Assembly (NCBI RefSeq): GCF_964204865.1
Contig: NC_135255.1
Span: forward strand, 6,696,001-6,760,000
DNA length: 64,000 nucleotides
Direction: 5' to 3'
Origin: Styela clava
Taxonomy: Eukaryota
Both the position numbers and the translations under genes were made by a program. This document shows positions 1-63,300 of the stretch, piece by piece. How positions within the stretch are numbered: position 1 is the first letter of the stretch; each line of letters opens with the position of its first letter. Below the pieces are notes generated by a model. That model ran no database searches. It was not told the origin of the DNA and worked only from the letters and a program-made list of their open reading frames with translations.

Positions 1-1123
1 CAGGAATTATATTAATCAACAGATTGTTTGTTGTGTTGAGAGGTGATAGTGTTGTGTATGTATGTTTACTTGAGTTGTAGATTTAAAAGAACTCTGTTTG
101 GTCTGCTGCTGAAAGTGTAATTAGTGCTAGACGCAGGAGTCTGTAAGGTCGGTTTTTCTCTTTAAGTACAAGGTAATATTGTCGGTTTGAGAAGTTAGGT
201 AGGCTGGACTGCCATTGACAGATTTGAAGAAAAAAATTATTAAAAGTTTCCACAATTTCCACAATAAAAACCAATTACGCCAATAGTTACATAGATTTAC
301 TTTGAGACAGCACTGCCAGTAAATAGCTGTTCACATTATTTACGTCGACAATATCACTTAAACAGCTAGGGGGTGGATGGAATGCTGCAATGTTGATGTT
401 TTTGGAAAAAAACTTTTAGCACAGAAATTTAGTTCATCAGAGCGAATCTTTACAGTTTATGGATTAGCATTAGTGGCTCATCCAGTTGAACGAGCAAAAA
501 CCATTTTTGAGGTTACGAAAGAAAGAATCTCAGATGTTTAAATTCAATCTTAATTTATATCAAATATCAAGTGTGTTCGGCATTTAATCAGTAAGAAGGG
601 ATTTGCAATTATCTATTTTACCGAGCATGTCGGCACTAGTAAAAGCTCACAAACACTGATTTTGCGTTCTCAAGTTAACCACCTCATCCTACGTACATGT
701 CGTTAAAATTAGAATTTCCGTGGGCTAAGCCCATTTGATGCGGCTAATTCTACAGAACCTAATAAACAAAATTCTGGGAAAAATACCAAGAAAGACGTTT
801 CCATATTGAAGACTCTTTGAAAGCTGCCACATTCAAGCTATCATAGTTAACCGAAACGTGAAATTAACCACGAACTCACAGCCTAATCCGATAAGTAGAA
901 AAAAGGGAGGACTGGCTGTGTAAACAAAGTAATTGTTCTTAGTATATATGAACTATAGAATTTTGCTACAGCACCTAAGACACTGCTGTTACAGATCCTT
1001 TTTAAAGAGATGTAAAAAAAAACTTACATAAAAATGCAACTAATTAAAACTATTGTTTTATGATTTTATGTTCTTAGTACAATATACATTTACCAAGCTT
1101 CAACTTTTCAAAATTCTGCTCAG

Positions 1124-4100: not shown

Positions 4101-7100
4101 GTAATACCAACATACAGAACAGCGCTATAATCATGGGATTATTCATTGTAAAGCTACAATGAATAGACTTTAATCAAAGTGAATTTCAGTAAAGAATTTT
4201 AGAATAAATAGTTATGCTCTTGGACACGAAGTGTACATATTGATCGTTTTGTTAAAATGTTGTTGTTGTGTTGTTATTGTTGTGAAATAATCACATTTCA
4301 TGCTACCAATAGACCGATTTTAAGGGCTTGTGAAGCTGTTAGAAAGCTATTTCTCCTATTTTTCAAGCTGTTATGGGACCCCAATATTTCATCCTAACTG
4401 TTTCATTTTAATTCACGGGAACACTTTTATATTACATATTGGAACATTTTTATATGACATTTGAACTTGTTGCTCACTTATTTCCAGAGAGGAAAGCCTT
4501 CCCAGATATCGTCATATATTCGACAAACATCTGATGTTAAAAGAGATGAGATTGAGGGAAAGAGCGATGAAAGCAAAACGAGCGAACAATGAGTTGTTCA
4601 ACGAAGATTCTTTCGAAGATGTTACATTAGGTAAAAGAGAACGTCGCCAATTTTATAACTGTGAATACCTTGGGCCAACAGATAGATTAAAGTGTTTTCT
4701 TACGTAAACAGATGAAAGTTATAGTGGTCCGTGTCCTATACTTCATCGCGGGTCACCAATTCGTTAGATTTTTTTTTTAAGTTTTTTGAATACGTCTTTT
4801 TATTTTCAGAGGAAAGTTACAGGGAAGGACCTGCACATGTTGAATTGAAAAAACTCATGTTTCTGGCTGAATTACTGGCTGATAAAATCGATACAACTGA
4901 ACATGAAATCGTGGTGGCCAAAGGTAAGTTATTAGCTATGTTCTTCATTGCAGAACATGGCTTCGACTTATGAATCGTTTTGCTAAACTTCTGTTGCTGT
5001 TGTTGTTATTGTTGTGGTGGTTAGTATGATTGTTGTTGTTGTGAAATGTTCGATTTCTGTTGGAACAATCGATTTCAAGTTTTTCGTATTTGATGATGGC
5101 AGAAAGGATGCTACTGTTATTTTATTTTCAAATATTCTTCGAGCTCATTATTCAATCTGAATTTTTCTATTTTTGCGTATATTGTTCAACTAAAGTTAGT
5201 CCGTCAACTTCTCGGCAAATCCACTGTAAGGTCTTACCGATATAGATATAAATTGGCCAAGGTTTTGAGATTTGATTTCAAACTTTTGAATGATTAGAAT
5301 TAGATAATATATTTCTGCATAATTGGCATTGGCTACTGCGATTGGTCACTTGGTATCCGTGTCCATATATCTGGGTATTGCTCTCTTGTTCAAAATCTAT
5401 CACTTTTTTGCAGGCATTACAATCTGAATAACGTAATTAATAATCCATTTTCTCTTTCACAATTTACCCAGGATGCTTGGATAGAGCTAAAGCGTTAACA
5501 GCTCGAGAGATTCTCTTCAAAACCCAGCCGTCTCTCGCGACACCTCGTAGACGGAAAACGCCCAAAACACGCCCAACTTCAACATCAGTTTTCGGCAGAA
5601 ACGCAGTCTTAGACGAAGATTTTCAAAACGAGAAAGAAATCATGGAGAACGCCGAAACTGCAATGAGCATTACGCAACAAAAGTATGATTATGACCAGTC
5701 AGCAAGAATTGGGTATGAAAGCAGAAGTGGAACGCCAAGACAAAAAATGCAACAACCAACATTACACCTTCCGGAGATAAGAGCACCGCAAAGTGGAACA
5801 CTGGAAATTCCTTTGGAAGGTAAGTTTAACTGCTGTATATATCATTTGGACCTCCTGAAGTATGCGCACCAAGATTGTGCACAACCTGAACTAAGGTTGT
5901 GTACCAGGTTAGGGTTCAGGTTATGCGACATTTTGATGCGCATAGTTCAGGAGTACCTATCATTTTTCCCATCAAAGAATTATTTGTGTCTGGTATACTT
6001 GGATAGGGCAGGGTATGGAGTTGGAGTCAGAAAATGACTATTTTGCTAGCCATTATCCAAAGTAACATTTGGTCCGCACTAAAAATTCACGGAGTAGGGA
6101 ATTGGTGTATTAATCAGACTTCAATTAAAAAGCTACACTAGTTACTGCTATGTAAGAGGCAATTGTCCGAACTCGTAGACCAGCGGTAAGTCAGAATATT
6201 TGCTGAACTGGAGTAGGAGTCAAAGTTTCGAATGAACGATTGTCGGATCTGTCTTTCTCCAGCTCCCTATCCTTGGCAGCTCCTTAATATACCATACGTC
6301 GGAATATTCTCTCAACGAAATACGATAATGTCTATGGCTTCTTTCATATATTGTAAATGCCTGTGTCAAGTTAAACTTTTTACCTTCTGCTTTTTTCAGA
6401 ACTCAATGATGCACAAGTCTTAAATAAACTTAGTACAAAACATCGTAAAGAAATCGGAATTGATCCAGTGGTAAAACACAACACAGCTGCTTTTCTAGCG
6501 TTGCAAGATAAATTAAAGCGAATGAAAGAAAGACAAAAAAAACTTTTAGGTGAGTACAAATCAAATAACAAAAATATTTTTTATTAATTAGGTTAAAATG
6601 GCAATTGATATAATAGAATTTCCTAGCTCATCAAAATTGCTTCTTAGAGTATTAGGAAGAGAAATAAAGAGTGAGATAGAGATATTCATTGTGTAGTCAA
6701 CCACAAAATAGTAATCGCGACATACAAACATACAGTAACATACACAATGTTGTTTGGTATAAACTGGTAAAAGCGATGCGACCATACGATTATAAAAGTC
6801 AACTTGGCCTGTCCACTTCTGTGTATAAGATTCTCAGGTTATAGTTGACTATATAAGGACACTATATATTATTGTTTTATGTTCATAAAGTACTTATTCA
6901 ATGGTTATTGCGTTATGCAAAGCGTTGATAACACGACATTGCAAATTTACCACATATTTTTTTTTACAAATGCTACATAGGTATGGGTACAGTTTGTCGG
7001 CTTTATTTGTTCCAAATACATAGACTAGGTGGTAGGAGGAATGCACAACCGGCCGGCATACCCTACAACAACAAATTCTCCAACAATCCCCTCGCATTGA

Positions 7101-10100
7101 ATTGAAATCATCGAATACTGTCGAAGTCAAAGATAGATTAGTGACCTCTTGGCTTCTTTTTCTCAATATATTTTATATTAGATTTCCTCTACCTAGAAAA
7201 TCTTTTTAGAACGTTTGGAAAAGCAGAAACTCGAAGCTGAGAGAGAAAGAGGGAATGAAAAACACGAAAAAAGTAAAAAAGAGACTTTCATCAGGCAACA
7301 AAGCGTGGTTTATCAAGTATGTACATTATGAATCCATTATTTGTCTCTTTTTAAAACAATATCCTCTAGGTGGCAAACTTGAGCTCGATTCGATACAAAT
7401 TGACAATGTAAATTTTGTTGGCAACGTCTATCCAGTTAAAAAATGCGAAATATCATAATTTATTTCAATAATTTAATCTTGTACCAAAAAATTTTTTGTA
7501 TCTCTTGTTGATTAGGTATAGTACCGATTGACGCTGTAGAATCAAAGATGTGATCCACACTATTGAATAACTCGTTTTGGAATTGATGACAATTTTGACT
7601 TTGAATCTGGGTTTAAAAAAGCTAACTTCGACTAAGATAACTTCCCACAACCGACATCACGATAACAAAAATTTAACTACAAATTTTTATTCTGTTCCGG
7701 TCAAAAATTTTATCGTGGCTGAAGACTTCCTAAATCTAGAAATTCAAAATTTGATTTTAACCATCATATGAGAAAATAGTCTAATTTTGACTTTGGATCA
7801 AACATATATAATTTTCCACTATACCTTCTAACCAAATATCGTGCATATACTATGTTTAGTCTGTAAATTGTTTTGGCTCCTAATAAAAATACCTGATAAG
7901 ACCAATGTTTAAAAATTTAAATTTCAGAGGCACCCTGTTTGAACGGTTTGTTTTTGGTGTATATATCGGTTTTATGAAGTCTAGTTTGGTGCTTTTATAG
8001 ATTTGTAACAAGAAAATTGGTGCATAGTGTTAAGCATTGACATTAGCATTTAGCAACACGATTGTCTATGGCGGTGTAAGAGTGCGAGTTTGGAGCTCGT
8101 GGGATTTCATTTATGTATTATGGTATTGGGACAATTTGTCTATCGTTTTTATTTAAATTCACTACTCCTCGTCATCGTATGAAATAAGTATAACCACTGG
8201 TCAGTTACAGCTCTCATAAACGATACAACGAGTTGGCTATTCCAGTACCTGGGCTGATAGTCGAGCATGAATCCGTGATCTAAATATGGTTGAACAGTCT
8301 CATCGGTTTTCATTCCCACCTCATAATTTTGAAAAGCCCATTTTTAGTACAAAAGCTGACGTCGGTTGCTATAATGGTTTTTTCCAACTGTTTTCCTTAT
8401 TTTCACGGTACTTTTAGTTTTATAATTTTAAAATTGAACTTTCATTCTATTGCAATTTTAAGAACATTTTTGTCATAGATTAATAATTAATCGAATAAAA
8501 CGTAAATTTGTTTTACTTCAACAAAATTCACCTTTCGCAGTGAAAGAAAGAAAAAGGGGATTGTATTATGTATCCTTTGTTGGTACCCTTAGACAATCAT
8601 TTATATTGTTTACTTCATAATAGGCACTTCATCCAGCAGACGATCCAGTTTTATCTATCGATGACGTACCAGAAGCATTACGTGACGTCAATGGAGAAAT
8701 TTCCAGAGCAGATAGTGCTGTTATTTTCGAGGTATTATGTTATCTGTATGTGATTATAAGGTATCGATTAAAAGATAACTGTTTGTTTAGATGGCTTCGT
8801 ACAATATTAAACTTGCTTCGTTTGAGCATGATTCAATGATGTTCTGTTAATAGATGTTAGATAATACAAACATAATTTGCAAAATCAATACCATTGCTAT
8901 GAAAACACATTTAATGTGTAAATTCAACACATTTAAAAATATGTGCAAAATTTATCAATATTTCGTATTAGCTCGTTTTTTTGCTGTAATACAACAATAC
9001 CACCAAATTTAATTCTGAAAGTCGACGCAAAGAACGTGAATCACACAAACGCTAAAAGCTTAGTTTCCGATACTATTTGACGATGCAACATGGTTGTAAT
9101 TATTAGATTAAGTTCACTATTCTATCCACTATTATTAAGAGCCATTGAGATTTGAATGATCCACAATATAATTCTATGGAATTACTATTGAAAATGAATT
9201 ATCAAAACTAATCTAATATATTAACAAAAATGTAATCCGTTGATAAAGTGTAATAGATCGAAGACTCATTAAAGTTTTTTTGGCCGACTACCTTATAATG
9301 AGAAGCCAATATCATCAATGGCTATCAAAGCAACTAATATCCTGAAAATGTATTTTTAGTAACTTTCCAAAAATATTTAGGATTTTTTTTTTCATCAAAT
9401 TGCTTTATTGAGGCTTCTAATTAACTAAATTCAAGAATCGTGTCATCCGGTATAAAATGATACAGACTTAGATTCAATAATTCCACATGCAGCTACCACT
9501 TTGTCCTATTTGAAGCAATTCTGATCATACATTCGGATCCGAATAGAATTGATGATAGGGCTAGGCCGAAGTTGGACTAGACCCTAGAAACGCAGACTTT
9601 TTCCAAGTCCTGTAATGTAACTCGCTGGAAGTTTGGTATCGTCAGAAAAGTTGTGGAATTTTTGTATGTTTATTTATTTCGTGACAACTTTATAACCACA
9701 AGTTGCTAAGGTATTTATGTAAAAGTGTCATCCAGGGAGAACCGATAGTATTGATTCACTGAATAAATATACAACGATGACTAAACTCATTGTTCACATA
9801 ATATAATCCAAAATATTGAGAAAATAGGAGGTTTTCAGAAAAGGGTGTTGAAAGCTGTGATTCAATTGGAAGAAGTATAGAACAATGGATGCCTCATCGC
9901 GTACGGCGTCGCGGGTTAGAATTCTCGTATCTAGATAGCATGACCACACCATCTACCATATTTTTTTAGGTTTTAATCTTTCGTCGGATTTTTTCCACCA
10001 CGGTACGTCACTAAGTCCTTGAAATCGTGGAAATGGAATTACTTGTGAAATGAAAGTACATATTGATCGTTTTGCTGAATATGTTGTTGTTGCTGGTCTT

Positions 10101-34789: not shown

Positions 34790-37700
34790 TTATGCAAAAT
34801 ATTCTTTACCACCAGCCACACCTTTAGTGTATTCATAATTTCCCTGTGGCTTCTTTCCGTCCACACCATATTCCAAAGCATAACTGCCCTCATCTTTTTT
34901 TCGCATGCGATACACAAGAAGCATAATGACGCATATTGCGAATAGAAGGCCTATACAGGCCCCAGCAATAATTGCACCCAAAAATGATGGATCTTTGGTT
35001 GGTGAGGCACCAACTGGTTCCATTTCTTCATCCTCTAACTCAGTTGTTTTTACATTCTTCTGCTCTGGTTCATCCTGTTGGGGAAAGAGTTTTATGTCAA
35101 AAATTCATTTAGGATTCCAGCCAGGGAAATATTTTTTTATTTAACAAAACAACAGAAAATTATACCTCCTCGGCTAAGACTCCTTTCGTTCCGACTCCTT
35201 TTGTTCCTTTGTTCAGGTCTTTTGGCAGTTCATGAACCTGAGGAAAACAAAGAGCATTAATAAGTAAAAAATATTGCTCATTACCCAGAAATTGTTACAT
35301 TAGATGAGATGCATCGCTTCATAATAGTTATTCATAAACTCACAGCACAAGTGAGATCAGAATATTCAATAATATAGTATTTAAGTGATACTGATACATA
35401 CAAAAATAAAGTCATATTGAAGTATTGAAGGATATGACAATTTACCTTGATAGGTGTTTTAGCTTTCTCTCCATTTACTTCAGGTTCTTCCTGTAATAAG
35501 AAAAAACTAAAATGAAAACCATTGGAATTCGCAATAAAAAAAGGTTCGACATGTCGCCAAGTTGAAGACAAATTAAGATCAATTAAGTGTTTTAAACAAC
35601 CAGTTACTGGTGAAAAAAAACTTACACCAACATCTATTTCTTCAATGTCAGCATCATCGTCATTTTCACTTGTTGGAATGGGTGCACCTGTTGTAAAAGA
35701 TTTTCATTAATTGAGATTTCAAAATATATGCTTCAAGTATGTCAATGACAAGCACATATCACATATAAAATGTTAGGACTAAAAGCACCTAACAAATGCC
35801 TTCATTCCCACCATTCTAAATATTGAAACAAAATGATAAATGTTATCATAATATAGATTGATAAAAATATATGTTGCTGAAAATTGACAAGTTAATACAA
35901 TGAATAACAAACGTGTGAAATGTAAAAACAATAATCTACATCACCACATCAAATTACTACAGTTCAAAAATCAAAAAACAACGTCATACAAAAATTGATT
36001 AGTGGCGTAAAAGATTAGGTGGCTTGCATTTTTAAATGCCCGTTGAAGCTTAAAACAGTACAATTTCTCATTTATATATCAGTGCCCAAAATAAGACATC
36101 AAATTTAAAAATTTATGTACCGGTAATTGGAACATTTTGTGCTAAAAAATGTCATAAAATACAATATTTATGAAAGATATGAATATTCTTTAAAAAAGCT
36201 AGTTTTATATATATATATATGTGTGTGTAAAATGAAGATGATTCAATTCACACCAAACAAACACATGCTATGAAAAAAATATGAACAAAATAATATAATG
36301 TGAAACTAATTAAACATAACATCATCATTAATAATTAAAACAGCTATTGCTGATGTCTCAATAAGTGCAAAGATGAAAACTTGTTACTTAGCAGTCATGT
36401 AACACTGTTGAGAATCTTAGAGACACTGCCGAGAATTTTCCTTGGTTAAATTTTAGGAAGTATAATTTGTGGTATATCACAATTTTACTTTCACAGTAAA
36501 ACTGAATGGTAAAAGATAAGAGGGCAGGTTGATGCAATTTATTCCATCTAACTTTACCTAAAAGATTGATGAAAGCAATTCATGAATCTAATCGAGTGTA
36601 TTATATATTACTTCTTAGGGCACATGAAATATTGTGGCAGACAGTGGCAACAAAAGTAAATATGTGTGATGAAATATGATAAATATTCTTAGTCAAAAAT
36701 GAAAATTTTCACAAAGAGACAATACCACACAATGTTTCATACTTCAAGCATGCATAGAAACAAAAACAAAAATCCATTCCGATTGAAAACAATAATTTCA
36801 AAATGTATTAGATAGACAAAACTATAAAATGAAACTGTTAATGTAATATCTCACATCAACGTAGAAAAAGTTAAATAAGTTTCATATTCAAGATTTCTTA
36901 ACAAAAAGCTTGATTGTGTTAATTCCATTACTGGTACTTTAATTTAAAGAAATCCAACAAAGCACACTCGATGAGCTTTCGTACCTTTAAATTTATTTTA
37001 TTTCAAAATATACTCTTTCTTGAACATGGACTATTCAAGTACATTTGATAGGCCCGTTTTTTTAATATTTTTAAAACATTTCCAGAAAATACTTATGCAA
37101 CTTTTTGTTCATGGCTATAAATGAAATAAAATCCAGTTTTTTTTTAGCATTCTGTACCCAGTTGAAATTATTTTCAAGTCTAAATATGACCCATGAATCG
37201 AATGTATCATGCATTGTACAACAAGCAACATCGGTTTGTTGTATTGTCTACTAAGACATCACTACCAGTCACTGCTTTAGCACCTGAATCTGTCAAAATG
37301 CTGGATACTTCATGCAACTTCGGAATTTCCGTGCTTGTCATAGAATGTATTTCTCCTTCTTCAGCAAATACAGGTGCGATCGTCTCGGTTATAACAGTAG
37401 AAGACATAGTGGTTGGATGTGTTTCAATAAATGTAGTGGTTGTCGCTTGATCGTCATCAATTGGTATAAAGCCTTGGAATTAATTATATACTGCAAGATG
37501 ACTTCCCAATAGTTTGAGATAAATTAATATCTCCAATACAGTAAAACAACACTTTATATTATTTAACATAATTCACAATTTCAATTGTCACATTAAATTG
37601 GAGTAGCCAGTAAAAGACTATTCAACTATAGAAATAGACATATTATTCTGGAAGATATTAAACTATACTACTGGTACAAACCCACATACCAAAGATATCA

Positions 37701-38759
37701 ATGATAGTAAAACGAGGAGTGGATCAGAATTTATATTGAAAATGCACTGATTGTATACTAGGCAAAGTCTCAATATTATGACAGGCTTTAATGGTGAAAT
37801 ATAATATGGTAATAGAGGAAATGAACTACTTCCTAATCTGGAATTGAAACCATGTCAATCATGGATACAAATTACAACGCTAGTATAAGGATCCATCATC
37901 TAGGCTTGACAGAATTTTCAAAACAATGGCACATGAACGTTATTTCTTGTACAGTAAGCTAAACTGCAGTTATGTACTTGTGTAAACAATGAATAAAAGA
38001 ACTTGAAGTAAATAACAAAAAAGGTATATTATAGATATATAACAATTAAAAATTGGTGCACTAAAGTTTAAAAATATTGAACAACATTGATATTCTAAGC
38101 TAAATGAAATGAATAAAACACCATATGCATGATGCCAAATAAAGTAAGCAAATCAATTTAAAACCTTTTTAAAAATGTGCAGAGAGCAACAGAGGCAAGC
38201 AACATGAATTATTCAGGGGAAAAGAAATATTCAATACACAGGCGGACACAGGGTGCAGGATAATAGCTAATACATATGTATGCTTGTCAATTCAAAATGC
38301 ATCTCAGTACTTACAATCAGAGATAGCACTATATTTCAACAACACCACCAATTTTTCAAGTAATATTAATAACGCAGTCAAATAATGTGGTTGCTCATGC
38401 ATATTTCCTGTTTAAAACCACATTGAATACATTCCAAAATACAGCCTTAAAATTCTGCATACATTGAAAATTGAAAAGAGGCTAACATTACTTCCACTGA
38501 AATTCATACCTGAGCCTTCATCATCATCTGTGTCTTCATCGTCAATAGGCAAGTCTGGATTTACGGTATGTGTCGCTCCATCTCCAGATGATTCTTCAGG
38601 TTCGAAATATAAATCCTGGCAATTGAAATAATAGCCATAAGCTGGGTAAAAGGTAATCAGAGAAACTACTTAAAGTATATAGAATATAGAACTTACCATT
38701 TGGGCATGACTAATGCCTATTAGACAGATACAGAAAATTAATAATTCCACAAACTTCAT
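34790..38759 (-). CDS. SDC: Syndecan (type I transmembrane heparan sulfate proteoglycan)
   Basis: Exons on minus strand: 38759-38697 (signal peptide MKFVELLIFCICLIGISHAQM), 38615-38510 (DLYFEPEESSGDG...DDEDTDDDEGSG, acidic Ser-Gly GAG sites), 37472-37266 (Thr-rich, weaker splice sites), 35687-35626, 35490-35446, 35237-35166, 35074-34790 (TM FLGAIIAGACIGLLFAICVIMLLVY, syndecan C1 motif RMRKKDEGSY, tail KEYFA*). All phases are compatible. Confidence 0.95.
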
Positions 38760-40260: not shown

Positions 40261-41805
40261 GAGAACAAATCTCGCCCAAAGAAATGTGCTTTCTATATCT
40301 TTAGTAGTCAAAATGCAATTGTTTGTTTACAACCGCAGCACTTTGCATGGGCATCAGTTCAATTACCATAAAAGGCATCGTCGCGCTATTGTCTTGTGTT
40401 GTAGCCTATTTTATTTAACATTTTACAATGCTTGGCCCGTTAATTGGCACATGTAAAGTGATATGTGTATATCTTTCACTCGCACCCCGCGCGTCGATAT
40501 TAGCTCGAAAAGTGGGGGCACATGGGGCTGCGAAAGAAGAACTGAGATAACAGTCATGCATAACTGATAAGAAGCAAACGATATACTGAAATTGGTAGGC
40601 TACTTTATATTTCGAGATTTGAAAAAAATATATATATTTGAAATTGATGTATCTTAGAGGTGAACTTCCCGTCACATATGTCGCCATTTCGTTTTCAGTG
40701 CTTTTGATGAGTTGGGGGGCTACTAACTTCAAAAACGATTGAACAGTTTTAATTTGGCTTTTCAACACATTAAAATTTGACGACGCCATCAAATGTGTTA
40801 CTGCAATAACGCCACATCTATGAAAGCACCGTCCCATCTGGGTAGTGGATGTGACCAACCTGCTTACGACCGCGATCGACTGAAATCTCGGCTCTGTGGG
40901 CGCATTTTAAACAAAATCGTCACAAAAATTTGTATTCATTATGTTCCATTTAATTTGTTAATTCAATCATGTAATTGTACCCGGAGTAAATTTTCATAAT
41001 TTATTTAATATTTATTCGAATCATACAATTCAGATCTAAGGTCTGCGTAATTTTTAGTCGTAAAAGTTGGAAATTCTCAAAAATCTTTGCCCAGTCGGCT
41101 ATAGGCTAGGGCATAGGCCTACATATTATCTAGACAGCGAAGAGTAAATATTCTCAAATCATGAATGTTACATGACTGCTCAAACTTCAGTATCTAATTT
41201 ATCGTGGCGATCGACGTGTTGGCCATCCCTGTTATATAGGATTTAAACGGCATATTTACAGTCATACTGCATTGCGACTTTAAATTCTGAATTTAAGGCT
41301 ATGCACCCCTGACCACGAGAATTTTGAGAAGGAAAAGTACATGTTGGTTCCCATTTTTCCATCGTTCTACCATATATTAAAGTTATAAAGCACTATGTGG
41401 GCTACCTCATACCTCAGATTTCTACGATCAAAAAATGGATTCTTGAATCTCACATTTTTGATTATTTAATTCTACCTTCTTTCCCACCGTATACACCCCA
41501 AAAAAACAGTCAGAATATTCTGGAAACGAATTTTACAACGAGAAGGAAGTTGCGGCAAATAAATAGAAACATGGATGATAACTATAATAAAAGATTAAAA
41601 AAAAGCAAATACAGTAGTAAAAGAATATTGAAGATAAAGAATAGAAAAGGAGCATCAGCGAATGGCAACGGAAGAAACATTACAAGACAATTTACAGATA
41701 AATAAAAATGCAACGGATGATGTAAATAAAAACAACGCATATTTGTTTTTGTGTAAATGTCACATGACTCGAAAACGAGAAAAATGGAATGAAACATGTT
41801 TATTT

Positions 41806-44800
41806 TCAACAAAAACAAGAATGCCAGCACGATTTTTTGCCCGACTCACTGCCATCTGGAGTAGATTGTCTGCTGCTGCGTAGAATGCTCAGCACCGAGT
41901 CCAACCGTTTTCTGGGTGTTTGCGGCAAAGATTTATTTTTTCCTTTCGATGTTCTTCTGTGTATCACACGAGTAGTCAAATGTTGGAAAACACGATGTAA
42001 TCTGGCAACACTATTATTCGAAACCTCAGCAAAGCCTACACACTCTTGCCAAGAACCAACGATTCCTCGAACATATTCAGAAGAGACTTGCGTCCCTCGC
42101 GATTTATGAGTTTGATTTAGAACTTCGGCCGCTAAAGACATTTGCTTTTGGAATACGTTCCTCCTACGTGACCCATTACTTCGAGGACTAAACGAAAACG
42201 CAGAACTCAGCAAATGATCATTGCTCGCTTTTCTTTCCATAACTGGACTTTCAGACCAAGGGGATGCAGTAGGAGCAGTCACATCCTAAAAAAAAAAAAA
42301 ATATTGTAAATTTGATGGACGTTTTTCCCGCCTTCATCACTGAGAAAATATTTTTAGATGTCATTTATCATATTGGCCAGGTCATTTATTGCACTGAAAT
42401 AATCGGCCTAATTGAAGTTCAAAACTACGTATTGTCTGTCTCCAGGTGTAATTTTATATTCATTTTCAAATCAGTTTTCAGGAACTACATCAACTTACAA
42501 TGTGGGTTCCAACTACTGCAATTGGAGGTAAAGAATCCTCTCCAACTAATCCTGTCATTCGTTTGTTGCTGTTTGTCGCAAGATGATAAGATGGGTCAAC
42601 TCTTTTCTTCCTGCCGTTGTCCGGAGAGGGTGATTGTGACCTCTCCATACTAGCACAAGGGTGCCCTCTGACGGACAAAATTTTATCTCTAATTTGTTGC
42701 ACGGTGTCAAAAGAACGTCCGTCTTGAACTGAGTAAACTAGAATGAATGCGTCGGCAGCTCTAATGGCTTCATCGTGTATTGTAGATTTCCCGTCTTGCT
42801 TCCGATAAATGAACGAAGGTACAACATTCCTGTAAAATGTGGAAAATGTTATTGTCTGAATTTTCCATGCCCCTTTCATGCCATATTACCAAGAGAGCAA
42901 TGCTCAAGTATATGGGCACGAAAGTCAAACATATTAGTACGGGTATACAATTCACACAGAAGACTACGGGTATTGCATTCTTCGCCTGACTATCAGATAG
43001 CAGCAGACATGAGGGCGGAACCACCACAGGGTGCGCAATTTTTAGGTTTGATGCCTTTTTCACACCAATTTTATTTCGCCAATAGTAAAACGAGAATATC
43101 GGTCGGAGATCGAATACTTATCGATCTTAGATCGGTAATTAGTTAATAACTCGCTAATTATACGACATAATTAACCCAAAATCTATAGGCTTCTGGTCCG
43201 AGGTAAGATGCATGCACATGCAAAATTTGGAGCAGATTCAAGCACGCGTTCGCGAGATATCGCGTTCATCTAACAGACACACACACAGACACACAGACAG
43301 ACATACATACATACAGACAAATACCTATCAATATACTTACCGATCTTAAGATCGATAAGTAACAAAAGAGCGCGGTAAAAAGGCGACAATGCTGTGGCAA
43401 CGAAAAAGCGGTGTTTCGACGATGCGTTTCGGACACGTTTATGTGATTTATCTCTTTATTGAATTTATGGATATCATATATATATATATAATGCATATTT
43501 GATGCCATAAAAAATATACACAATCTCATTCTTTTCGGAGAGAAAGGTTTGTTAATTTTATGCGTAATAGTAAAATACGTACAGGGCCGTCACGTATGTA
43601 CGAGTGACGCAAAACATTAAATAAAATTTTCAGGTCACGGAAAGTTGCGCCGATTTATGTACCGCGTGTTAATTTAGCAGTTTCAATCGATATGAGACGC
43701 ATGACGATATGGTATAGAAAATGAAATCCTAATTTTTATGCTAAAATATTTTAGAATCATTTTACATTTCATCCTTCTTATATTTCCCTTTTCATTTCAT
43801 AACTACAGTTTTAGTAGAAAGCCAATCAAGTAAAATGTTTCGTGAACCATTTTTTGAATGTTTCATTGTTACTGACAAGGATACACTGACCACTTCGGCT
43901 TGACCACCGCCGAGTACTAAGGCAACGTAAAACTAAACTGATAGATAATCCTATCTGAATCCGCTGTAATAAAACGGTAACGTAACATGCCATTCAGCCG
44001 AATTGATATCAATAAATCTATTTTGCTGCACGCCTCAATACCGAATATCCAGAAATAGATATTTTTCGCAAAACAATGCAACCGGAAGTAGACGTGTTTT
44101 CTGTTTATTTGACCTTCCGCCGACAAAAATGAGGAAATTTTCAAGCGTAATTCAGCGTTGGTAATATTAGGTCATTGTTATAAAATCGGAATAGGTAATA
44201 GGTGATGAACACGCTATTTAAATATTAACAGCAGTATCAAATAATTTTCACTATGGACTTTCTTAATTTGTTTATAAACTAATAGAGTGTTGCATCCATG
44301 TTAGACATCTTACTTATTCATTTTACATTTATAAAACCTAAATACTTCGGCAATTTATCTCTTGCTGAAACAGCATTAAAAGCTCTGAAGAATTGTTGTT
44401 GTTTTGTATCGTAACTCAGATGCATTTTCACAATGGAGAAGAAACTCCGATGTCACCTATTCTGCATAATGCAGCTAATGCAAACGTGTCAAATTTGCAA
44501 GCATTATACCTAGTGAATAGAATTGGATGAAATTATATATTTCCACAAAACGTTGGATTTGTACAACTACAGGTTGATCTCGTTCGTGACTGAAAGCTGT
44601 TATTTTTGCTATCAGGTCAGACCTTCCTGATTGCTGGAATATCACAAATAAGTTTATGTGTGGATTTTCCATTTAAATTTGTTTTATTTAGAAATAGGAA
44701 TTCTGCTCGTCGAGACTGATTTATTTTGGTAAATTAATGCATTTACATTTGTTACTTATTGAACATCGTACTCATGAAATAAGGTGTAACAAAAAAGTCT

Positions 44801-47427
44801 AAACCTGGGTTTCTCAAACTGGGAACTCGAAAGAAGGGCACGAGCAAATGACCCCGTTAAGTACGTAAATTGACTGCAGTTTGTTCAATTATTTAATTAT
44901 ATTGCGCGCTGTAACAGTAAATGCCAAGCAGGGCCTTTGTCAACACTCGGATTTTCCCCGATCAAATCCTAATCTGACAGTTTATGTTTAAAAAGGTGCT
45001 CACATAATTAAAAATAGACATATTGTTTGTCTGTCAGGTAAGGGTTGCCACAACTTCTGTAAAAGCTGATTTCAACAAACTATGCAAAAACTCGAAATTT
45101 TAATAATCCCACTAAAATGTTAAATCAATAAAATTTTGCGTTGTGAGAACTTTTTAATTCGTTGTGTACACTGAAAAACTAAATTTTATGTGCGGCCCAG
45201 CTAAATGTCTGTTATAAGTTGGTTATATGACCCACCGACAAAGTATGTTGCACACCCCTGGTCTGAACAATCAACAATCTCCGTTGTATATGATTCTAGT
45301 ATTGCATTTCGGGAAAAGAAGATAATTATCTTGATAACACCGCTAAATTAACATAAGGGTTATTATCAATTTATAACAAAATTACTCAAGATCGTATGGG
45401 CGCACTAAGGTCATGAAATCACCATAAATGTATAATGATACTGAGGTATGAGTGTATGCTGAGCATAAACCACGTTAAAAATAAATTGTTGTTACCGTGT
45501 AATCTAAGGTGAAAGTCCACGAAAAACACAGTTTCCTGGTAATCTAGCTCAAAAACAACTCCAATGCGTTTCATACGTGTTTATGTAATCTATATATAAT
45601 CTGTGACGGAAGTCAGATTTAGGTTTCAAGTTTATCTAATTTTACAATAAACCGCTACAAAATAAAACCTCAAATGTTGACAAAATACTAAGCATTTAAA
45701 CTCCATTTTGAACAGAATAATGAATATTAAAATGATCGTCTCATTCACCCATTCTAGTTCATTGCATTTTATTTATTACTTGGATCTTTGAAAATATTTT
45801 AGACGTAGCTTACATGGACTTGTTCGACTCTACAAAATTTTTCTTGTATCTTCTAGTTATGGGACTTTTCAACGTCGATACTGGGGGCCTTCGTCGTGGT
45901 GTCAGTCGTTGGGCAAGCCGTTGCCTCAAAGATTTACGTGGTGCGTACGTTCGTTTAAAACTGAAATTAAGAAATGTAGTAAGTATGGAAGGCTTTGAGC
46001 GCTCTTCAAGTTAAAATAAAATTAGGTATCAAAATTGTTGTATTTCGAAAATACAGTGAGGGGGTTTCCGCATATTGCAAACGACCAAACTTAACTATTA
46101 TCAATGGCCATTGAAAATGTGAAATGAATGATTTGGCAAGTTTCGTATGAATACAGAAAATTCAGCTTAAAAGCATTTTTACATTGAATAGTATGTATGA
46201 TAGATATATATAGGTGTACATACCTTGCAGTATCAGTGACTTTGATCATAGTCTTGAATTCATTGGTGTCTAATTCATTGTTATTTGAATTTTTTCGTTT
46301 ATGATGTTTACCTTGTGCATTACGGAGTAACGTAGAGTTTTGCTGAAAAATTATATTTGAAATATAAGTAATAATAAAATCCCGTTAAACTAATGTAAAT
46401 AGTGAAAATTTTGTATACAATTTTTGTTTGCAATATTTGAAACAAGCAGCATTTGGATTACATCAACTGAAAACATATTTTTAACTTTAACTACTGAAAA
46501 TTTAAAATCAAATGTTCAATGAAAAAAACAGATTTTTTCATAATAACCACAACACAACCAACAACTATAGCAACAAGAACTATTCAGCAAATTGATTGAC
46601 TTGAATTACTTCTAATCTATCGTCAGTCAGCATTTACGAATAATCTCAATGCTGATATTTTAATTTCTAAATTCATTTAATTATGTAAATCTAATATACA
46701 CAATTTTCTTTTAGTTTGGTAGTAGTTGTATTCAATTACACGCCTTTTATGACAAAAACAATCTAATTAGAGACGAGACAGCAAACCTGAATGGCTTTAG
46801 TAATTTAGCACATTTTTAATCTTATTTTGTTCATAATTTCTTGTGAACAAATAATTTATCGATCCCGTAGAAATTGAAATAAACTTACTTGATCAGAAGA
46901 GTTGATGTCCATTTTCCAAAGGCATTCCACGCCTTCTTCTTTTGCTTCCGAATCCCATTTTTCTGATAGTTCTGTCAGATTCAACTCCTTGTAAAAGGAA
47001 GCTTCAATTGTGGGTGGACAACTCCCTCTGTAAGAATTAAAAAAATTGGGTGATTATTGTGACATAACATTACGAGAAAAAAACAGAGCAATGCGCAAAT
47101 AAAGAAAGACAAAATACCGACACCGCACCTGTAGTATATATAAGTTATAGCTTTCATGGAGACCCTTTCATTTTTATTTACTGGAAATTCGGATGGGAGA
47201 ATACGAAGAGAAAATATCTTTTGTTTTAAAAAAATAAACAGAAACAAATTAGCAGTAGACCGACCCTCTTGTAGTCAAATATAATACAATAATCATACTT
47301 ACGCTTCGACTTTCTTCTCGTTTATAAACTGCAGGGTGACTGCGGTCTTCCCCACAGAAGAGCCGCCCAATATGACAATATTTACTGGCAACTTTGCTGC
47401 TTCAATAGATTCCCTGAAGGGCGCCAT
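41806..47427 (-). CDS. Atypical Ras-family small GTPase-like protein (~446 aa; RASD/DIRAS/RASL-like fold with large insertions)
   Basis: Exons on minus strand: 47427-47303 (ATG; IVILGGSSVGKT P-loop), 47027-46889 (CPPTIEASFYK effector loop), 46342-46224 (IKVTDTA), 45960-45814, 42829-42499 (AIRAADAFILVYSVQDGRSFDTVQQIRDKI...PPIAVVGTHI), 42285-41806 (D...FAEVSNN...LHRVFQHL...SCWHSCFC*). All introns are GT-AG and in phase. Confidence 0.85.
43089..43362 (-). mobile_element. DINE-1/HINE-like non-autonomous Helentron derivative in an intron of the Ras-like gene
   Basis: Minus strand begins TTACTTATCGATCTT-AAGATCGGTAAGTA (subTIR plus its inverted copy), then a GTCT/GTAT/GT microsatellite and core, then 3' subTIR AAGATCGATAAGT and a short stem-loop, ending in a T run. 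Confidence 0.65.
44805..45260. mobile_element. Old hAT-type MITE
   Basis: Ends CTGGGTTTCTCAAAC ... GTTGCACACCCCTG; flanks GTCTAAAC / GTCTGAAC (8 bp, 1 mismatch). Confidence 0.6.
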
Positions 47428-48328
47428 TAGTGAAACACGTATTTTGCAAATATTCTTCTCTTTTGTAAAGAGTATGAGAATTTATCCAGTATGAATATCT
47501 GTATAAAAATATTAAAATTTTATAATTCAGATTAAAAATTTTTTTGAACACATCCTTTTCGATATTTTCACATATATATATGTTCAATTTTATATAACCA
47601 CTATTTATTGGCGTCTCAATCGAAATATATATAATAATGTAGCGCATCAGTGAACCTGCTTGCAAATATTGTACTATTTGATTCTCAACATTTAGGAAGG
47701 ATTCGTGTCCTTGGTCTGATCCTTTCCTAACTTAAAAATACTTCATTTCTCCCAAAACTTTTTGTCTATATCACGTTATTGTTTTCCTCTCACTAGGGTA
47801 TGTAAATAGTGTAGTTTATGCAATAGATAACCCCATGTGCTATTAATAATCATGATAATCATGTGCTATTTGTACAGTAACGTCAATTAAAAATAGATAC
47901 AAATTGCAAGTTCATGTTGACCATGTAATGACAATACTTCTATTCTGATAGTTTCCGGTTCAGTCAGTAGGGTTCCATACCTAATAAAGTGATCAGGATA
48001 TTTCATAACATGCAGCCGTACGCGAGTATCAATTAGGAATTGAACAACATATACACTCCTTTCGTTTGACATAGAAGGATAGACAAGGCCAAGTAAAATC
48101 GCAAATCTAACGTGACCTAAGCATGCCATAGCTTTCCCTCGTGTCATGCACATATTGTTACATCTCAAAAAGTGCTTATTATGCCTTTAAGTCTTTTACG
48201 TCTTAAAAGTTCTGTAAATAAAGCGGAAGAATGCATCATGACATTGTTTTAGTCGTTTTTATGCGATTCTGGTGTATTTGTCTTGACAAGTCAGGAATTT
48301 GCGTCATTGAGTCTTTGTTGCCTATTTC

Positions 48329-48450
48329 TCATTTCTACAACAATGTATGGAAATATATTTGATGATCGAAGCCCGGAAAGTCGACGTGAGTCATTTCTAC
48401 AACAATGTATGGAAATATATTTGATGATCGAAGCCTGGAAAGTCGACGTG
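48329..48450. repeat. Direct tandem duplication (62-bp period, 2 copies)
   Basis: TCATTTCTACAACAATGTATGGAAATATATTTGATGATCGAAGCC(C/T)GGAAAGTCGACGTG occurs twice with 1 mismatch. Confidence 0.9.
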
Positions 48451-57319: not shown

Positions 57320-60300
57320 TCAACTAGTTTTAACGTTATTTTTTCGAAGTTCAGTCAAAACTTTATCCAATCTTTTCACAAATAAATCAACATCTCCTTT
57401 AGTCATTCCTATTGCAGCTGCTGCAGTTAAATAAGCTGTTCTGTAATTGTTACAATGAGATCCATATCCCTGGAACAGATACCCCTCAATGTCCTTTGTT
57501 GCATTGGTAGCCACAACCCTATAAAATAATCATACCTGTTTCCCTGTACTAATAGAGGGGAAGTTATAAACAAAATGGTAATGAGGAAATGAAGTGGTGT
57601 ATACCAGAGGACCTAATCCTCGAGTCGCAATGAGTCCTGGATCATTGGGTCTCAAGTCAGGCCCGACCAAACTGATCGCATGGTAAATCGTTTTCACTGG
57701 AATTGATTCCATTCAGCGACTTGTTCGAAATCATTTTCACAAACAAAGTTCCTCAATAAGCCATTTTTTGGGGGGCCCGAGATTCCCAACAGTGGTTACT
57801 ACAAAGAAATAACCAATAATATCCTTTCGAATGATTCAAAATATGTATGCTATTTGTGATGATTTTGTTACAGGTTTGGATTTTCATATACCGGTATATC
57901 TTGGTTGAGAAATTGGCCGAGAATCATCAGCTCAGGTAGGATAATAGTTATGATGATTATAGTCGATAAAATTTAAATGTTCCTAATGCATGGACTGAAG
58001 AGATTTGATATAGGTTATGAATTTTATTGATTGAAAAATATTTTTGATGGCCACAAATAAGAAAATGATGGGGCGACCATTAAAAGAAAACCCCTTTCTT
58101 TTCACCTACATATACGAAAGGGTGAAATAACAAAGGGATTCAAATGCAATCAGTCAAAAAAGTCGAATTAAGTGTGTACAAGGAGTTTGACAGCTTTTAA
58201 GATAACATTACATACTTTTCTTATTACAGCTCTACCCTGAAACAACGATTTATGTCGAATTTTATGAAATAATACAAATAAAGTTGAAATTCTCTTACCT
58301 TGTTCCACTGACACACCTTGTGAACAACATAGAGCCCAATTCTGTGACGTCTTTTTTCTGACTGTTCACCAGGTTTTGTGAGACAGACATTGCTAAAAAG
58401 GATGAATTGTTTTAATATCAACAGCCAAAATAGAGGCTTAAAGCCAGCCTATATTAACAATACAGAGCTAATAATATCTACGGGAGGGTTGGGGGATTCA
58501 CATCTCTTAAAAATTACAGCTGGTTTATTACAATCCATAAATTCATGTCGAAAAAACATAGCAATAAAGTGGAAACGCTACATCTTTATGCTACATGATT
58601 CACATTTCTCAACCTCCGAATATCACTTTTATGTGTTAATAACACAACACTTTCTCAAATGATGTAGAATGGTACGATTCATTAATAATAAAAATTATTT
58701 TCTATATACACAATTCCCAGAATCAAAAAAGGAGTTTTGTGTGTGGCAACAAAAAATTGCATTATTACAACTAATACCCATTGATATAGGATTATGTGGA
58801 GTTTCCAGCACAACTTCACCGTGCTTTGTAGCAACCTTGGTTAATTCTTCCTTTAGGTACTTGTAGTTCTCCTGAAGTAAAGAAAACCCAAGTATAAAAT
58901 AGGAGCTTAATTGGACATTACTACAAACCTACAGAATAATAAGACCTAAGAATATTATAGTGCCTGTGAGGCTCATAAGTGTTGGAAATAACTATGGTGA
59001 AATATTAATTAGATATGAAATATGAAGTTTCTATCCTACAGCTGGAGCCACTGTGATTTCAAACCAGCTTCCTAGCCCTGGTAGAACAACCATTAATCCG
59101 TTAATATTTTCAGTAACATAAAAGTAGCAGTGTTTTATCTTTTGCAACATTCAGTCTCTTTCTCTTAGATTAGCAGGAGACAACGCAAGATAGTGTAATA
59201 TTTTTTGCCTCAAGGTCATGAGAACTCACTCAGAAGAAAAAAAGATACCTCTCTCAGCAAAGGTATGAGTGACCAATGAAATGCCAAGAGTTCCTGAAAC
59301 TAAATATGGTGACTAATTACACACTAGTAAATGCTTGGATTACAATCAAACAATAGTAACCACAGGGAAAGGCGATCATACAGAATTCTAACAATCGTAG
59401 TAACAATAAAATTAATTTTACCTTTCTTTCTTTCAACAAAGCTTCATATTTATTCATTCCCATTTCTAGTAAGGTTATTAAAACATCAAGTGAAGGGGCT
59501 GCTGATGCCCGACCTGCGTAAGTCTTAGCGATTTTATCACCAAAATTTTTGTTCATGACACCGATTACTGCTCCACCCACTGGAACCATGAGATTTTTAT
59601 CACAACTTTGAACAAAAGCATCAAGTCTTCCAACTCTGCTCGCCTAAATTGAATGAAGGATATAAACCTAGAAAATATACACTTTAGGCTTGAGTTAAGC
59701 ATCAGGAACGAACGTCTGGTTCACAGTATTGTAATTTGAAACATCAGGAGATAATTGTCTGTAGGTCGATTGCCGGCAATACTGTGGGGTCAAAATTAGA
59801 GTTTGGTATATTATTATTGATATTGAATTCAAGTTGTATTTTTAAACCCCGGTACCCGCCAAAGTATAAAGTCAGATTTGAAATCTTCTTAGTCGGAACT
59901 CCAGATTTCTAATTGTAGTAATTGAAGCTAAATATCCTGACGAAAACCAGAAGCATTAAATTTACTGAGCATTCCTAATAGATAATTAAAGAAGGATTGC
60001 TTACATCGAAGTTTTTGGGACAAGATTTTTTTTTAGAATTGGAATCGGGAACCAGACTGTAAACTTCCATCAACCCGAAATTAAACCCAAATTTTCGTCA
60101 AGCACGAATCAAAGCTGTTTTTTTTTAGTGCCACAACAATGTTTGTTGAGAAGGATATCAATTTTTCCAGAGTCCGGAAATTGAATAACTTCTGGTCAGG
60201 CGCAGCTCCCTTAACCATTCAATTCTGAGAAACTGAGATGAGGAACACTTTGCTAAACATTCAGGTGCCTATCAATAGTTACTCAATACAGAGGCAAATA

Positions 60301-63300
60301 AACAATTGAGAAGCTCAATTAGTAATTTTCACAGCTCTATGTATCAGTAGAATAAAAAGGGAACACACCAAATGAGTATTGTAATATAAATTTCAGATAA
60401 AAATATGACTCACTTGCTGTATTAAATGAGTACATTTTGATGATTGTAAACCATAGGCATTATTGACTATATGTGGAATATCATGCGATTTGCAGATTTT
60501 TGCAAGCTCTTCTAACCTGAAAATAATAGATAAATATTGGCTATCTTTGTCAAGTATCAAATTGAGGAATTTTATTTCATGAAAATATTAGAACCATATT
60601 ACCGATCCTATACCAGCGAATGATCAATCACCATAATCATTGAAATATAGATACCGGTATATACATATTGGTGATTTCTGTATCTAAAATATTCTAGAAT
60701 TCTAGCGTTGTTCACAAAACCGCTGGTCAACTATAGATTCCTCCACCATCAAGTCTATGCATAAGAAACAAAAAAACTGGTACTGCTCAACTATTTTCAT
60801 ACCCGACATGAACTAGCAACTGAAAGAGAGGTGTCAACTATAGATTCCTCCACCATCAAGTCTATGCATAAGAAACAAAAAAACTGGTACTGCTCAACTA
60901 TTTTCATACCCGACATGAACTAGCAACTGAAAGAGAGGTGTCAACTATAGATTCCTCCACCATCAAGTCTATGCATAAGAAACAAAAAAACTGGTACTGC
61001 TCAACTATTTTCATACCCGACATGAACTAGCAACTGAAAGAGAGGTGTCAACTATAGATTCCTCCACCATCAAGTCTATGCATAAGAAACAAAAAAACTG
61101 GTACTGCTCAACTATTTTCATACCCGACATGAACTAGCAACTGAAAGAGAGGTGTCAACTATAGATTCCTCCACCATCAAGTCTATGCATAAGAAACAAA
61201 AAAACTGGTACTGCTCAACTATTTTCATACCCGACATGAACTAGCAACTGAAAGAGAGGTCATGGTTCACCATATGTGTAAGCCATCTTATCTTCCTCTC
61301 CCCCAGGAAAAATACACAAATCCTATCCTATATATCTAAGAATCAACTTCATTTTGAACATTTATATGTTTCTACATATAACAGTGGTCGACTTTATGTA
61401 CTTTGTGTACTACTGAGCCAAATATACACATTTCAGGTAGCAAGAGGGTCGCACTAATTTTCGCCTAAAAAAACTATTGCCACATTAAACATCATATTTT
61501 GACGCACCTGCAACTTTATTTTCTGTGTTAAATAACCAACAGTAGCGATATTTGACTAATTACTACAAGACAAACAACAGCGCAGATAACAATAAATTCA
61601 TGAGCAACTTTTATCTTTAAAAGTAAAGTCGCTCGAAGACCACAAAAAATTTGATTGCAGCCAGTGGGCTGCAGTTTGCCGAACACTGATATATAACATT
61701 GAATCATCATTTCATTTCACACGATGACAATTTCTATCCGAATTCCTAATATTTATTTTTTTGCCTATTCATTTCAAATTTCCCAACGTCTAGTAAATAC
61801 AAATTTTTTAGAAGGGAAGTAACTGCAGAACTTGTTCGTTGATACAAAAAATAATACCTGTCTGGTACTCGTGGTGCGAAACACGACGTTGTTGAAAATA
61901 CACATAATATTTTTTCAGCACCATATTCCGCGATTGCCTTTTCAACTCCATCAAGATCTGTTCTCAACTCATCTCCTTCTAATTGATTTTCAATGATTAT
62001 TGGTTTAAATCCAGCAGATATAATGGACTGAAATTAAGACAATAATTCATACCAATATGTATCATAATCAGAAATAGATAAGGTTTGATTTGAGAGTTTC
62101 TGGTCTACTTAGTTATTAATTGGGATCACAGTGCAGCAACTGCTGACAGTTTGGTGTGTGCCCATAATGGGGTCCAGGTGAGAGCTATGATTATATATAT
62201 TAGGTTCATAAGCATTAAAAAATATTATTTAGTTTTATGTATACTAAAAGTGTTGTAGTCAAATAAGCTCAGAGTTAAAAGTTAATATTTCCAAATAACC
62301 CAGACGTGCAAAAGGGCGGAATTTTGCTAAAGATAGATGATATCTTATTGTGTAAGTCATCTTCAATGATATAGAACCATGGATTATTCGACTTTCGGGG
62401 TGATTTAGGATTATACCCAGACCCAGCCAGAATGTTTCAAATATTAAAAACTCTTTTGATATCCCAAACCTCATCTGTCTCATTGAAACACCATGATTTA
62501 GAATTGAAGGGAGAAAAAAGTGTTGTAAAGGGACGGCAGAAGGGAGCATAGTAAGATTTATTTTACATAAAACACACAACATGTTACAGTTCTTTGCAAG
62601 TAATCCTAGAATAGAATTTACCTTAAAACATGATTTTTGATCGATACGAGGCCATATAATATATTCTGCCCCAGGTCTTAGACTTCTCAAAGTAAGAAAA
62701 CACAAAGTGAGAGTCATTCCAGTTGCCATAGGAACAATAATACAATCTGATGTAGACTTCACACCTAGACTGACGAAAACGTAATATAAACTGTATTTAA
62801 CAAAGTTGAATAAAAACTTATAAGCCTTGAAAGAACGAAACTATGAAGAGGATTAATTAATAACCACTCCTGTAGTATGCGAACCAAGATGGCGGACACC
62901 GAAGTGTAGTACTATTTTATTCCAATTTTCCTTATTTTAGTTCTATTACGAGTTTGGGGACTAGCCAAGTGACTCCCGTAGTATTTGTAACTGAAATTAT
63001 GGCCTAACCTGGTACACATACTTCGTTACAGTGTCCGCCATCTTGGTTCACATACTACAGGAATACCAATTATTAAGACACACTTCCTTTTTATTTATGA
63101 TTATTTTTTAATCAGTTGGATATATAATGATATTAATCTCATTGATAGTCTTATGAAAAACATTAGCGAAGGGGTGTACTGGCTTGTAACTCATTAAATC
63201 TTGAAATAAAAGTTGGAAAGATTTGTGCAGACAAGATTCTTAGTCACAAGAATCTATAAAAATATTTTATAAAGCCAGAATCTTACTGATTAAGGATTGC

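Follow-up and report, generated by a model that had tools for sequence, protein, structure and literature searches.

A Ras-like gene of Styela clava and its relatives: an apparently undescribed ascidian subfamily of atypical Ras GTPases

In small GTPases the Lys/Ser of G1, the Thr of G2 and the Asp of G3 serve the phosphates and Mg2+, and the Asp of G4 confers guanine specificity, while the Gly of G3 varies more than its Asp and G5 varies widely (10.1101/2019.12.24.888222). THLD is the G4 of the nucleotide-bound LRRK2 Roc structure 2ZEJ, and the G3 of Rad and Rem2 reads DIWE (10.1101/2019.12.24.888222). Three classes of pseudo-GTPases have been distinguished; Rnd binds nucleotide without hydrolysis, and RGK remains catalytic (PMC5593906). 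The GTPase-deficient proteins Rnd, RhoH and RhoBTB, which are changed at positions 12, 59 and 61, stay bound to GTP and are controlled through phosphorylation or transcription; F28L is a fast-cycling substitution (PMC9029563). In KRAS, changes at G12, Q61, N116, K117, S145 and A146 are activating; those at G12 and Q61 impair hydrolysis, those of G4 and G5 activate by speeding exchange, and G60S has moderate transforming activity (10.1101/2024.10.22.618529). Here we describe Styela clava LOC120331203, a minus-strand gene in a stretch of 64,000 nucleotides (the window; contig NC_135255.1, positions 6,696,001 to 6,760,000) which encodes a Ras-like protein with relatives in three ascidian orders. 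Comparison of their sequences points, with moderate confidence, to a family that would bind guanine nucleotide loosely, hydrolyse GTP poorly and act as a mostly GTP-loaded scaffold, predicted to be tethered to membranes, rather than as an on/off switch.

The Styela gene and its ascidian relatives

LOC120331203 consists of six minus-strand exons that join into an open frame of 446 aa. All its introns are GT..AG, and the translation is identical to NCBI XP_039254205.2, annotated merely as "uncharacterized". The coding part of exon 1 (47303..47427) carries the start codon, β1, the G1 P-loop GGSSVGKT (47367-47344; aa 21-28) and α1; upstream of it, spliced contigs run about 60-70 nt further, to about 47485-47500. 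Exon 2 (46889..47027) encodes a switch I without aromatic residue, the G2 PPTIE with Thr48 (47011-47009), β2 and the start of insertion 1, and exon 3 (46224..46342) the remainder of that insertion, β3 and the Asp-Thr-Ala of G3, ending in AG, the first two bases of the Ser codon. Exon 4 (45814..45960), of 147 nt and frame-preserving, completes G3 as DTAS (aa 125-128), places Phe at the position of Ras Gln61 (45959-45957) and carries the basic switch II insertion. Exon 5 (42499..42829; Pfam Ras 8.8e-5) encodes α2, β4, α3, insertion 3, β5 and the Thr-His-Ile of G4, and the coding part of exon 6 (41806..42285) contains the Asp that completes G4 as THID (aa 285-288), insertion 4, α4, β6, the G5 SNN (42021-42013; aa 376-378) and α5, followed by a conserved PRKRxxS helix (41916-41893), a Cys-rich end CWHSCFC (41829-41809) and the stop codon. 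Spliced-contig coverage marks a 3' untranslated region at 41518..41805, the end of which is not defined. The readings of all five motifs in the original prediction, which was made from the DNA alone, are borne out by this translation.

Transcript data consist of assembled contigs, which lose rare variants, from seven runs of three studies, out of nine that were called RNA-like by guess rather than from an RNA record, and from one DNA-like run (X10). The exon chain holds in six of the seven RNA-like runs (X1, X2, X3, X4, X5, X6), each of which has all five splice joints; the seventh (X8) has a single joint, exon 4-5, and the DNA-like run covers the introns and has none of the five. Exon 4 is present in every contig that crosses its position, so that G3 is DTAS, and no joint skipping exon 4 (the DTAR form) is listed in the seven runs, contigs being prone to drop rare forms. 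Moreover, because exon 3 ends in AG at the codon of the G3 Gly, any downstream exon gives Ser or Arg and never Gly; this excludes an alternative exon after 46224 restoring DTAG, which the original prediction had named as contrary evidence. Loose-ended long contigs occur near exon 3 (46357, run X6) and in intron 2 (46662, runs X2 and X6), and their ends could come from a repeat, from a fortuitous match or from an exon used as an alternative further upstream.

The gene is under purifying selection. Seven of the 11 coding variants in the RNA-like contigs are synonymous and four are non-synonymous (ratio of non-synonymous to synonymous polymorphism, pN/pS, 0.17; binomial p 0.004), and three of these four fall outside the G-domain core. 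The polymorphism result agrees with conservation between species, the Styela core being 31% identical to that of Ciona and 35% to that of Clavelina, compared with 12% and 9% outside the core. Together with the spliced contigs, the pN/pS supports the earlier proposal of a maintained gene rather than a pseudogene.

The AlphaFold model of the Styela protein, the kind of check that had been suggested, predicts a complete six-strand, five-helix G-domain with its elements in order and its motifs on the expected loops. The predicted local distance difference test (pLDDT) score is about 90 in the core and <50 in four long insertions which more than double the domain length: 56 aa between β2 and β3, 55 aa in switch II (15 of them Lys/Arg), 42 aa between α3 and β5, and 61 aa after G4. 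The model of the Clavelina member resembles it (mean pLDDT 76); the input alignments of both held ordinary Ras proteins, which could bias the models toward the Ras fold.

Relatives were found by several routes. A full-library HMMER search with a single-protein query returned 49 proteins, five of them at E ≤1e-10; they include a full-length relative, P0003 (448 aa, 48% identity), and the fragments P0004, P0005 and P0007. Clavelina lepadiformis LOC143470034 (P0006 cluster) and Ciona intestinalis LOC113475749 (P0010 cluster) are also full-length members. A profile search, in which 7,996 candidates were scored, gave six proteins and added four last-exon fragments to the family, and in a metagenome scan one further family gene appeared as four near-identical loci, L096 among them. 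The word-indexed search with the full Styela protein matched only that protein itself. Styela, Ciona and Clavelina represent three ascidian orders, a range that is a lower bound and does not in itself establish restriction to ascidians, the full-library search having used one protein and not a profile. Within Styela, a DNA pattern for the shared β6 motif has one genomic match, LOC120331203 itself, and the absence of a second copy rests on that one pattern: genome searches with P0006 and P0059 missed even LOC120331203 and are uninformative on copy number, and the gene is absent among the 150 matches listed in a Pfam Ras search of the genome.

The four full-length members, of 339-448 aa, form one clade (support 100/100) on a long stem of 0.79 changes per column, which splits into a Styela branch (P0001, P0003; 98/94) and a Ciona/Clavelina branch (99/97). 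A phase-0 intron that interrupts G4 between THx and D has the same position in Styela as in L096 of the Ciona/Clavelina branch, and the simplest reading is that the two branches are one-to-one orthologous. The fragments P0004, P0005/P0051, P0007 and P0056-59 and one RASD-like paralogue stand outside both trees; the second tree is also without Arf, AGAP, RhoBTB and most Rabs, and its bootstrap is not fully settled.

All four full-length members retain GKT in the P-loop, Thr in G2 and Asp in both G3 and G4, and GxxxxGKT and the equivalents of Thr35, Asp57 and Asp119 are invariant across the three orders. G4 is THxD throughout, its Asp being kept in L096 as well, and TH is found at G4 in none of the 34 non-family matches with a readable G4 (42 examined). 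Position 61, the catalytic Gln of Ras, is aromatic in every full-length member (F, Y, F, Y); G5 reads SNN, TNN, TSR and TSR, and thus never SAK; position 12 is other than Gly in three of the four; and the stretch from α1 to G2, which in Ras holds Phe28 and Tyr32, lacks an aromatic residue in three, Ciona having a Tyr. The Ala59 equivalent is kept and G2 is of Ras type. The ends of the proteins differ: the Styela branch has a further tail with [ST]PRKRxxS, found in all four tails, and with a Cys cluster, while the Ciona/Clavelina branch ends at α5 and has its Cys cluster in the α3-β5 insertion (P0006, P0010, L096). The change at G3, given prominence in the original prediction, is real in Styela and is not a family trait, since the Styela branch has DTAS and the Ciona and Clavelina members keep DTAG. 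Nor is the G3 Gly invariant, as had been assumed, because three other Styela Ras-family genes also lack it (DSIR, DSAI, DTSE).

Nucleotide binding and hydrolysis

The residues essential for binding are invariant, and the changed residues all point, by analogy with the published cases, to loose binding, fast exchange and weak hydrolysis, which is why a GTP-loaded scaffold is the favoured reading and one that we consider marginally probable. In the Styela protein, Lys27/Thr28, Thr48 and Asp125 would hold the phosphates and Mg2+, and Asp288 would read guanine. Loss of the equivalents of Phe28, Asn116, Lys117, Ala146 and Lys147 would give a looser base pocket and faster exchange without a guanine nucleotide exchange factor (GEF), and the aromatic residue at 61 and the Ser at 12, joined in the Styela branch by a Ser at 60, may remove both normal hydrolysis and that assisted by a GTPase-activating protein (GAP). 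Control might instead be exerted through expression and through phosphorylation of the insertions, which are rich in Ser/Thr and Arg/Lys, and of the PRKRxxS tail, with lipidation of the Cys cluster as a further possible control. The original prediction had proposed an altered or lost function from the rewritten motifs; the altered pocket stands, but loss of binding does not follow from G4 and G5, since the G4 Asp is kept and THLD and non-SAK G5 motifs occur in nucleotide-bound structures. It overlooked stronger arguments, namely the losses of the Gln61 and Phe28 equivalents and the four large insertions.

A bolder version, possible although we hold it doubtful, is that of an ascidian-wide Ras subfamily in which the guanine pocket has been rebuilt convergently on the Roc/LRRK2 plan (THxD), giving an always-loaded scaffold independent of GEF and GAP whose Cys membrane anchor has changed place, lying in an internal loop in Ciona, Clavelina and L096 and at the C-terminus in the Styela branch. 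If that were true, the branches with DTAG and with DTAS would together record, as a natural pair, the stepwise death of a switch.

Several points weigh against a GTP-loaded scaffold. Five pocket residues are altered together, whereas the cases in the literature are single substitutions, and this could abolish binding. The Rap2 and DIRAS-like genes of Styela also lack Gln61, and RGK hydrolyses despite divergence at several motifs (PMC5593906), so that loss of Gln61 is no proof of lost hydrolysis. The G4 His, which is invariant, could be an innovation that compensates for the changes or serves catalysis. No C-terminal Cys tail is present in the Ciona and Clavelina members, and membrane tethering may therefore differ by branch. 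Lastly, the polymorphism test comprises 11 sites only, taken from assembled contigs, some of low depth.

Some of these points can be turned into the proposal that the family is a slow but working GTPase with non-canonical catalysis of an RGK-, Rap- or Roc-like kind, in which THxD is functional and the insertions supply or recruit a catalytic residue. The Mg2+ and phosphate ligands and the G4 Asp kept in all four members, the DTAG kept in two, and the Styela Rap2- and DIRAS-like genes that do without Gln61 are consistent with it, as are THLD as a structurally observed G4 (10.1101/2019.12.24.888222) and the classification of RGK as catalytic despite its motif changes (PMC5593906). However, the Styela branch has lost the equivalents of Gly12, Gly60 and Gln61 together and has a 55-aa basic insertion in place of a normal switch II, and we regard slow catalysis as unlikely. 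A different rival holds that nucleotide is not bound at all and that the fold is an interaction platform, a class i pseudoGTPase in which the kept residues are structural. The simultaneous difference from Ras at five guanine-pocket positions and the long stem branch (0.79 changes per column) would agree with this, but the P-loop and the switch I Thr are intact here, in contrast to described class i domains such as p190RhoGAP pG1, in which the P-loop is blocked or switch I is missing (PMC5593906). The invariance of GxxxxGKT and of the Thr35, Asp57 and Asp119 equivalents across three orders likewise argues against a platform of this kind, which we think rather improbable.

The intact phosphate-side motifs and the base-side motifs, which are the most changed, could also be those of a nucleoside triphosphatase of relaxed base specificity, comparable to the G-like domain of AGAP/centaurin-gamma; that of centaurin gamma-1 is reportedly an NTPase, according to a study cited in PMC5593906. 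The guanine-reading G4 Asp is nevertheless kept in all four full-length members and in L096, which makes this quite improbable. That the gene is a duplicate in decay, or a pseudogene wrongly annotated, is suggested only by its unusual motifs and its low database scores (best PDB E 2e-7). Its frame is open, its splicing is canonical in three studies, pN/pS is 0.17, and relatives sharing these motifs occur in three orders; we find the idea hardly credible. The GTP-loaded scaffold with loose guanine binding is thus the reading we prefer.

Surroundings of the gene and earlier descriptions

Intron 4 contains a high-copy repeat at 43086..43366, outside the coding chain, where contig depth reaches the thousands in runs of both the RNA-like and the DNA-like kind. 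Its inverted arms, at 43115-43129 and 43347-43361, are 15 nt long and match perfectly; it is probably an element similar to a miniature inverted-repeat transposable element or a short interspersed nuclear element. A weaker second repeat lies near 44960-45260, and a direct duplication of about 55 nt, seen by eye, lies upstream of the gene at 48340-48450. Elsewhere in the window there are a syndecan gene on the minus strand (34790-38669), whose last exon matches Pfam Syndecan at 4.6e-22 and whose upstream exons are in the list of open reading frames, and minus-strand exons of SepSecS, the selenocysteine synthase (59317-62840; Pfam 1e-15 to 1e-23). Exon-like open frames occur on the plus strand at 1044-8839 (1044-1505, 5444-6037 and others), and a Pfam search of two of them gave no match.

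The original prediction recognised no described subfamily in these motifs, and literature searches by accession and by topic, which took in few subscription journals and neither supplements nor ANISEED/KH gene ids, likewise found no description of the family. Two surveys of Ras genes that include Ciona do not mention it in the passages available (PMC3265948, PMC3141262), and supplementary tables could hold the Ciona gene under a different id; PMC3265948 retrieved solely orthologues of human sequences. The family is apparently an undescribed ascidian Ras subfamily within the known class of atypical Ras GTPases.

Placement among known GTPase families

As judged from sequence, the family is best placed, in our view, with Ras rather than with Rho, Rab or Arf. 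All 60 listed matches of a profile search of the PDB are Ras-family proteins, with Rap2A first (E 2e-16), and the best match of the Styela sequence there is M-Ras (E 2e-7). The trees place the family within the Ras clade (97/83 in the second tree; 94 in the Shimodaira-Hasegawa-like approximate likelihood ratio test of the first, the run of which was unfinished) in a polytomy. Approximately unbiased (AU) tests, of low power, rejected none of RGK (p 0.57), the RERG group (p 0.58) and Rho (p 0.31); the references for the RERG group were Styela genes that we presume, from their motifs, to belong to it, and one named Ptychodera RERG-like protein. Ras-family chains align to the Styela model with Z about 20 and a root-mean-square deviation (rmsd) of 2.5 Å over 160-165 residues. 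RASL12 is the first or second row for the Styela and Clavelina models (Z 20.5, 20.2), tied with others; for Styela, RASL12-GDP (rmsd 2.5 Å over 162 residues) is tied with Rab and NRAS rows. Gem scores Z 18.4-18.7 and LRRK2 Z 14-15 with the two models, and such searches do not separate Ras subfamilies.

With the canonical Ras proteins (Rap1/Rap2, M-Ras, RIT1, K/H-Ras) the family shares the G2 PTIE(D/A)S/I(F/Y) and the fold; it differs from them in the THxD of G4, the [ST][NS]x of G5, the aromatic residue at 61, the missing Phe28 and the insertions of 42-61 aa. Slowly evolving subfamilies win sequence searches of this kind, and the top rank of canonical Ras is therefore no proof of ancestry. Language-model neighbours of P0001 include clusters of RASD1-like and RASL10B proteins (0.93), which is not so for P0006; Styela has separate RASD-like and DIRAS-like genes, and neither groups with the family in trees that included no RASL10 reference. 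Four paralogues which we take to be RASD-like (L061, L062, L063, L072) are present in Styela, two of them in tandem on C8 and three with an altered G2 context, and L040 (G000:C10:13933000-13960000) holds about four Rab-like genes in tandem, with exon matches that repeat.

Likeness to RERG, RASL11 and RASL12 is seen in the position of RASL12 among the tied top structural rows and in the Styela genes of this type, presumably RERG/RASL11/RASL12-like by their motifs, in which the G3 Gly is also absent, G5 is not SAK and two have long switch II insertions. There are four such RERG/RASL11-like genes (L037, L041/L088, L042, L044), and the three whose G3 was read lack its Gly; in L041 and L042 switch II holds an insertion of about 90 aa that is rich in Ser. 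Atypical Ras genes laden with insertions recur in Styela. The RERG/RASL11-like genes keep NKxD and the Trp of (R/Q/N)W(A/C)D, whereas the ascidian family has neither. A cytosolic location and the absence of lipid signals are described for the RERG/RASL11/RASL12 branch (PMC2186344). The ends of the Ciona and Clavelina members, which have no lipidation signal, resemble it in this, and the Styela branch, with its Cys-rich tail, does not.

The family resembles RGK (Gem, Rad, Rem) in the degenerate G3, the basic C-terminal helix and Ser-Cys at -8/-7 in two of four tails (P0001, P0004). Unlike RGK, it keeps the G2 Thr and the DTA of G3, reads THxD at G4 and has residues after the Cys that mismatch the C-7 motif; its G3 is DTAS or DTAG and not the DxWE of RGK, and a Cys at -7 is present in two of six ends (P0001/2, P0004) and absent in P0003, P0005, P0006 and P0010. 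A separate Styela RGK gene (L093/L094; G000:C13, about 3723500-3728322) has an acidic insertion following α1 and a C-7 tail that ends in a variant with Gln in place of His, and the Ciona RGK is another accession, XP_002128442 (PMC4081519). Orthology to RGK was dropped on account of the separate Styela gene with its C-7 tail, RGK as sister group being unrejected (AU p 0.57); the comparison with RGK in the original prediction keeps its value as an analogy and not as a relation.

Like Rnd, RhoH and RhoBTB, atypical Rho proteins of pseudoGTPase class ii, the family is changed at 12 and 61 with its binding motifs kept, and its G4 Thr with an insertion after it is a further likeness to Rho; Ala59, the Ras-type G2 and the placement with Ras in the tree (97/83) set it apart from them. 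The THxD of G4 corresponds to the THLD of LRRK2, a likeness to Roc that had been rightly seen at the outset, and the G5 of LRRK2 (NAT) is likewise not SAK. Roc identity is rejected, the Pfam Roc scores being 19-25 bits (cut-off 27) and the Ras scores 39-46 (cut-off 21.6) in all four members, and the protein, unlike Roco proteins, stands alone without COR or other domain and aligns with LRRK2 at Z 15.3, compared with about 20 for small GTPases. The likeness is likely convergent.

Atypical Ras proteins are common, and the family is therefore not a new kind of system. It belongs to the sister group of vertebrates, in which human-centred surveys would miss a conserved subfamily of this sort, and Ciona, which is a tractable model, has one of its members; its two branches allow a direct test of how far the G4/G5 consensus is required for nucleotide binding and of the effect of losing Gly60. 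Set beside the systems it resembles, it is a small stand-alone protein whose switch I is of Ras type and whose G4 is of Roc type.

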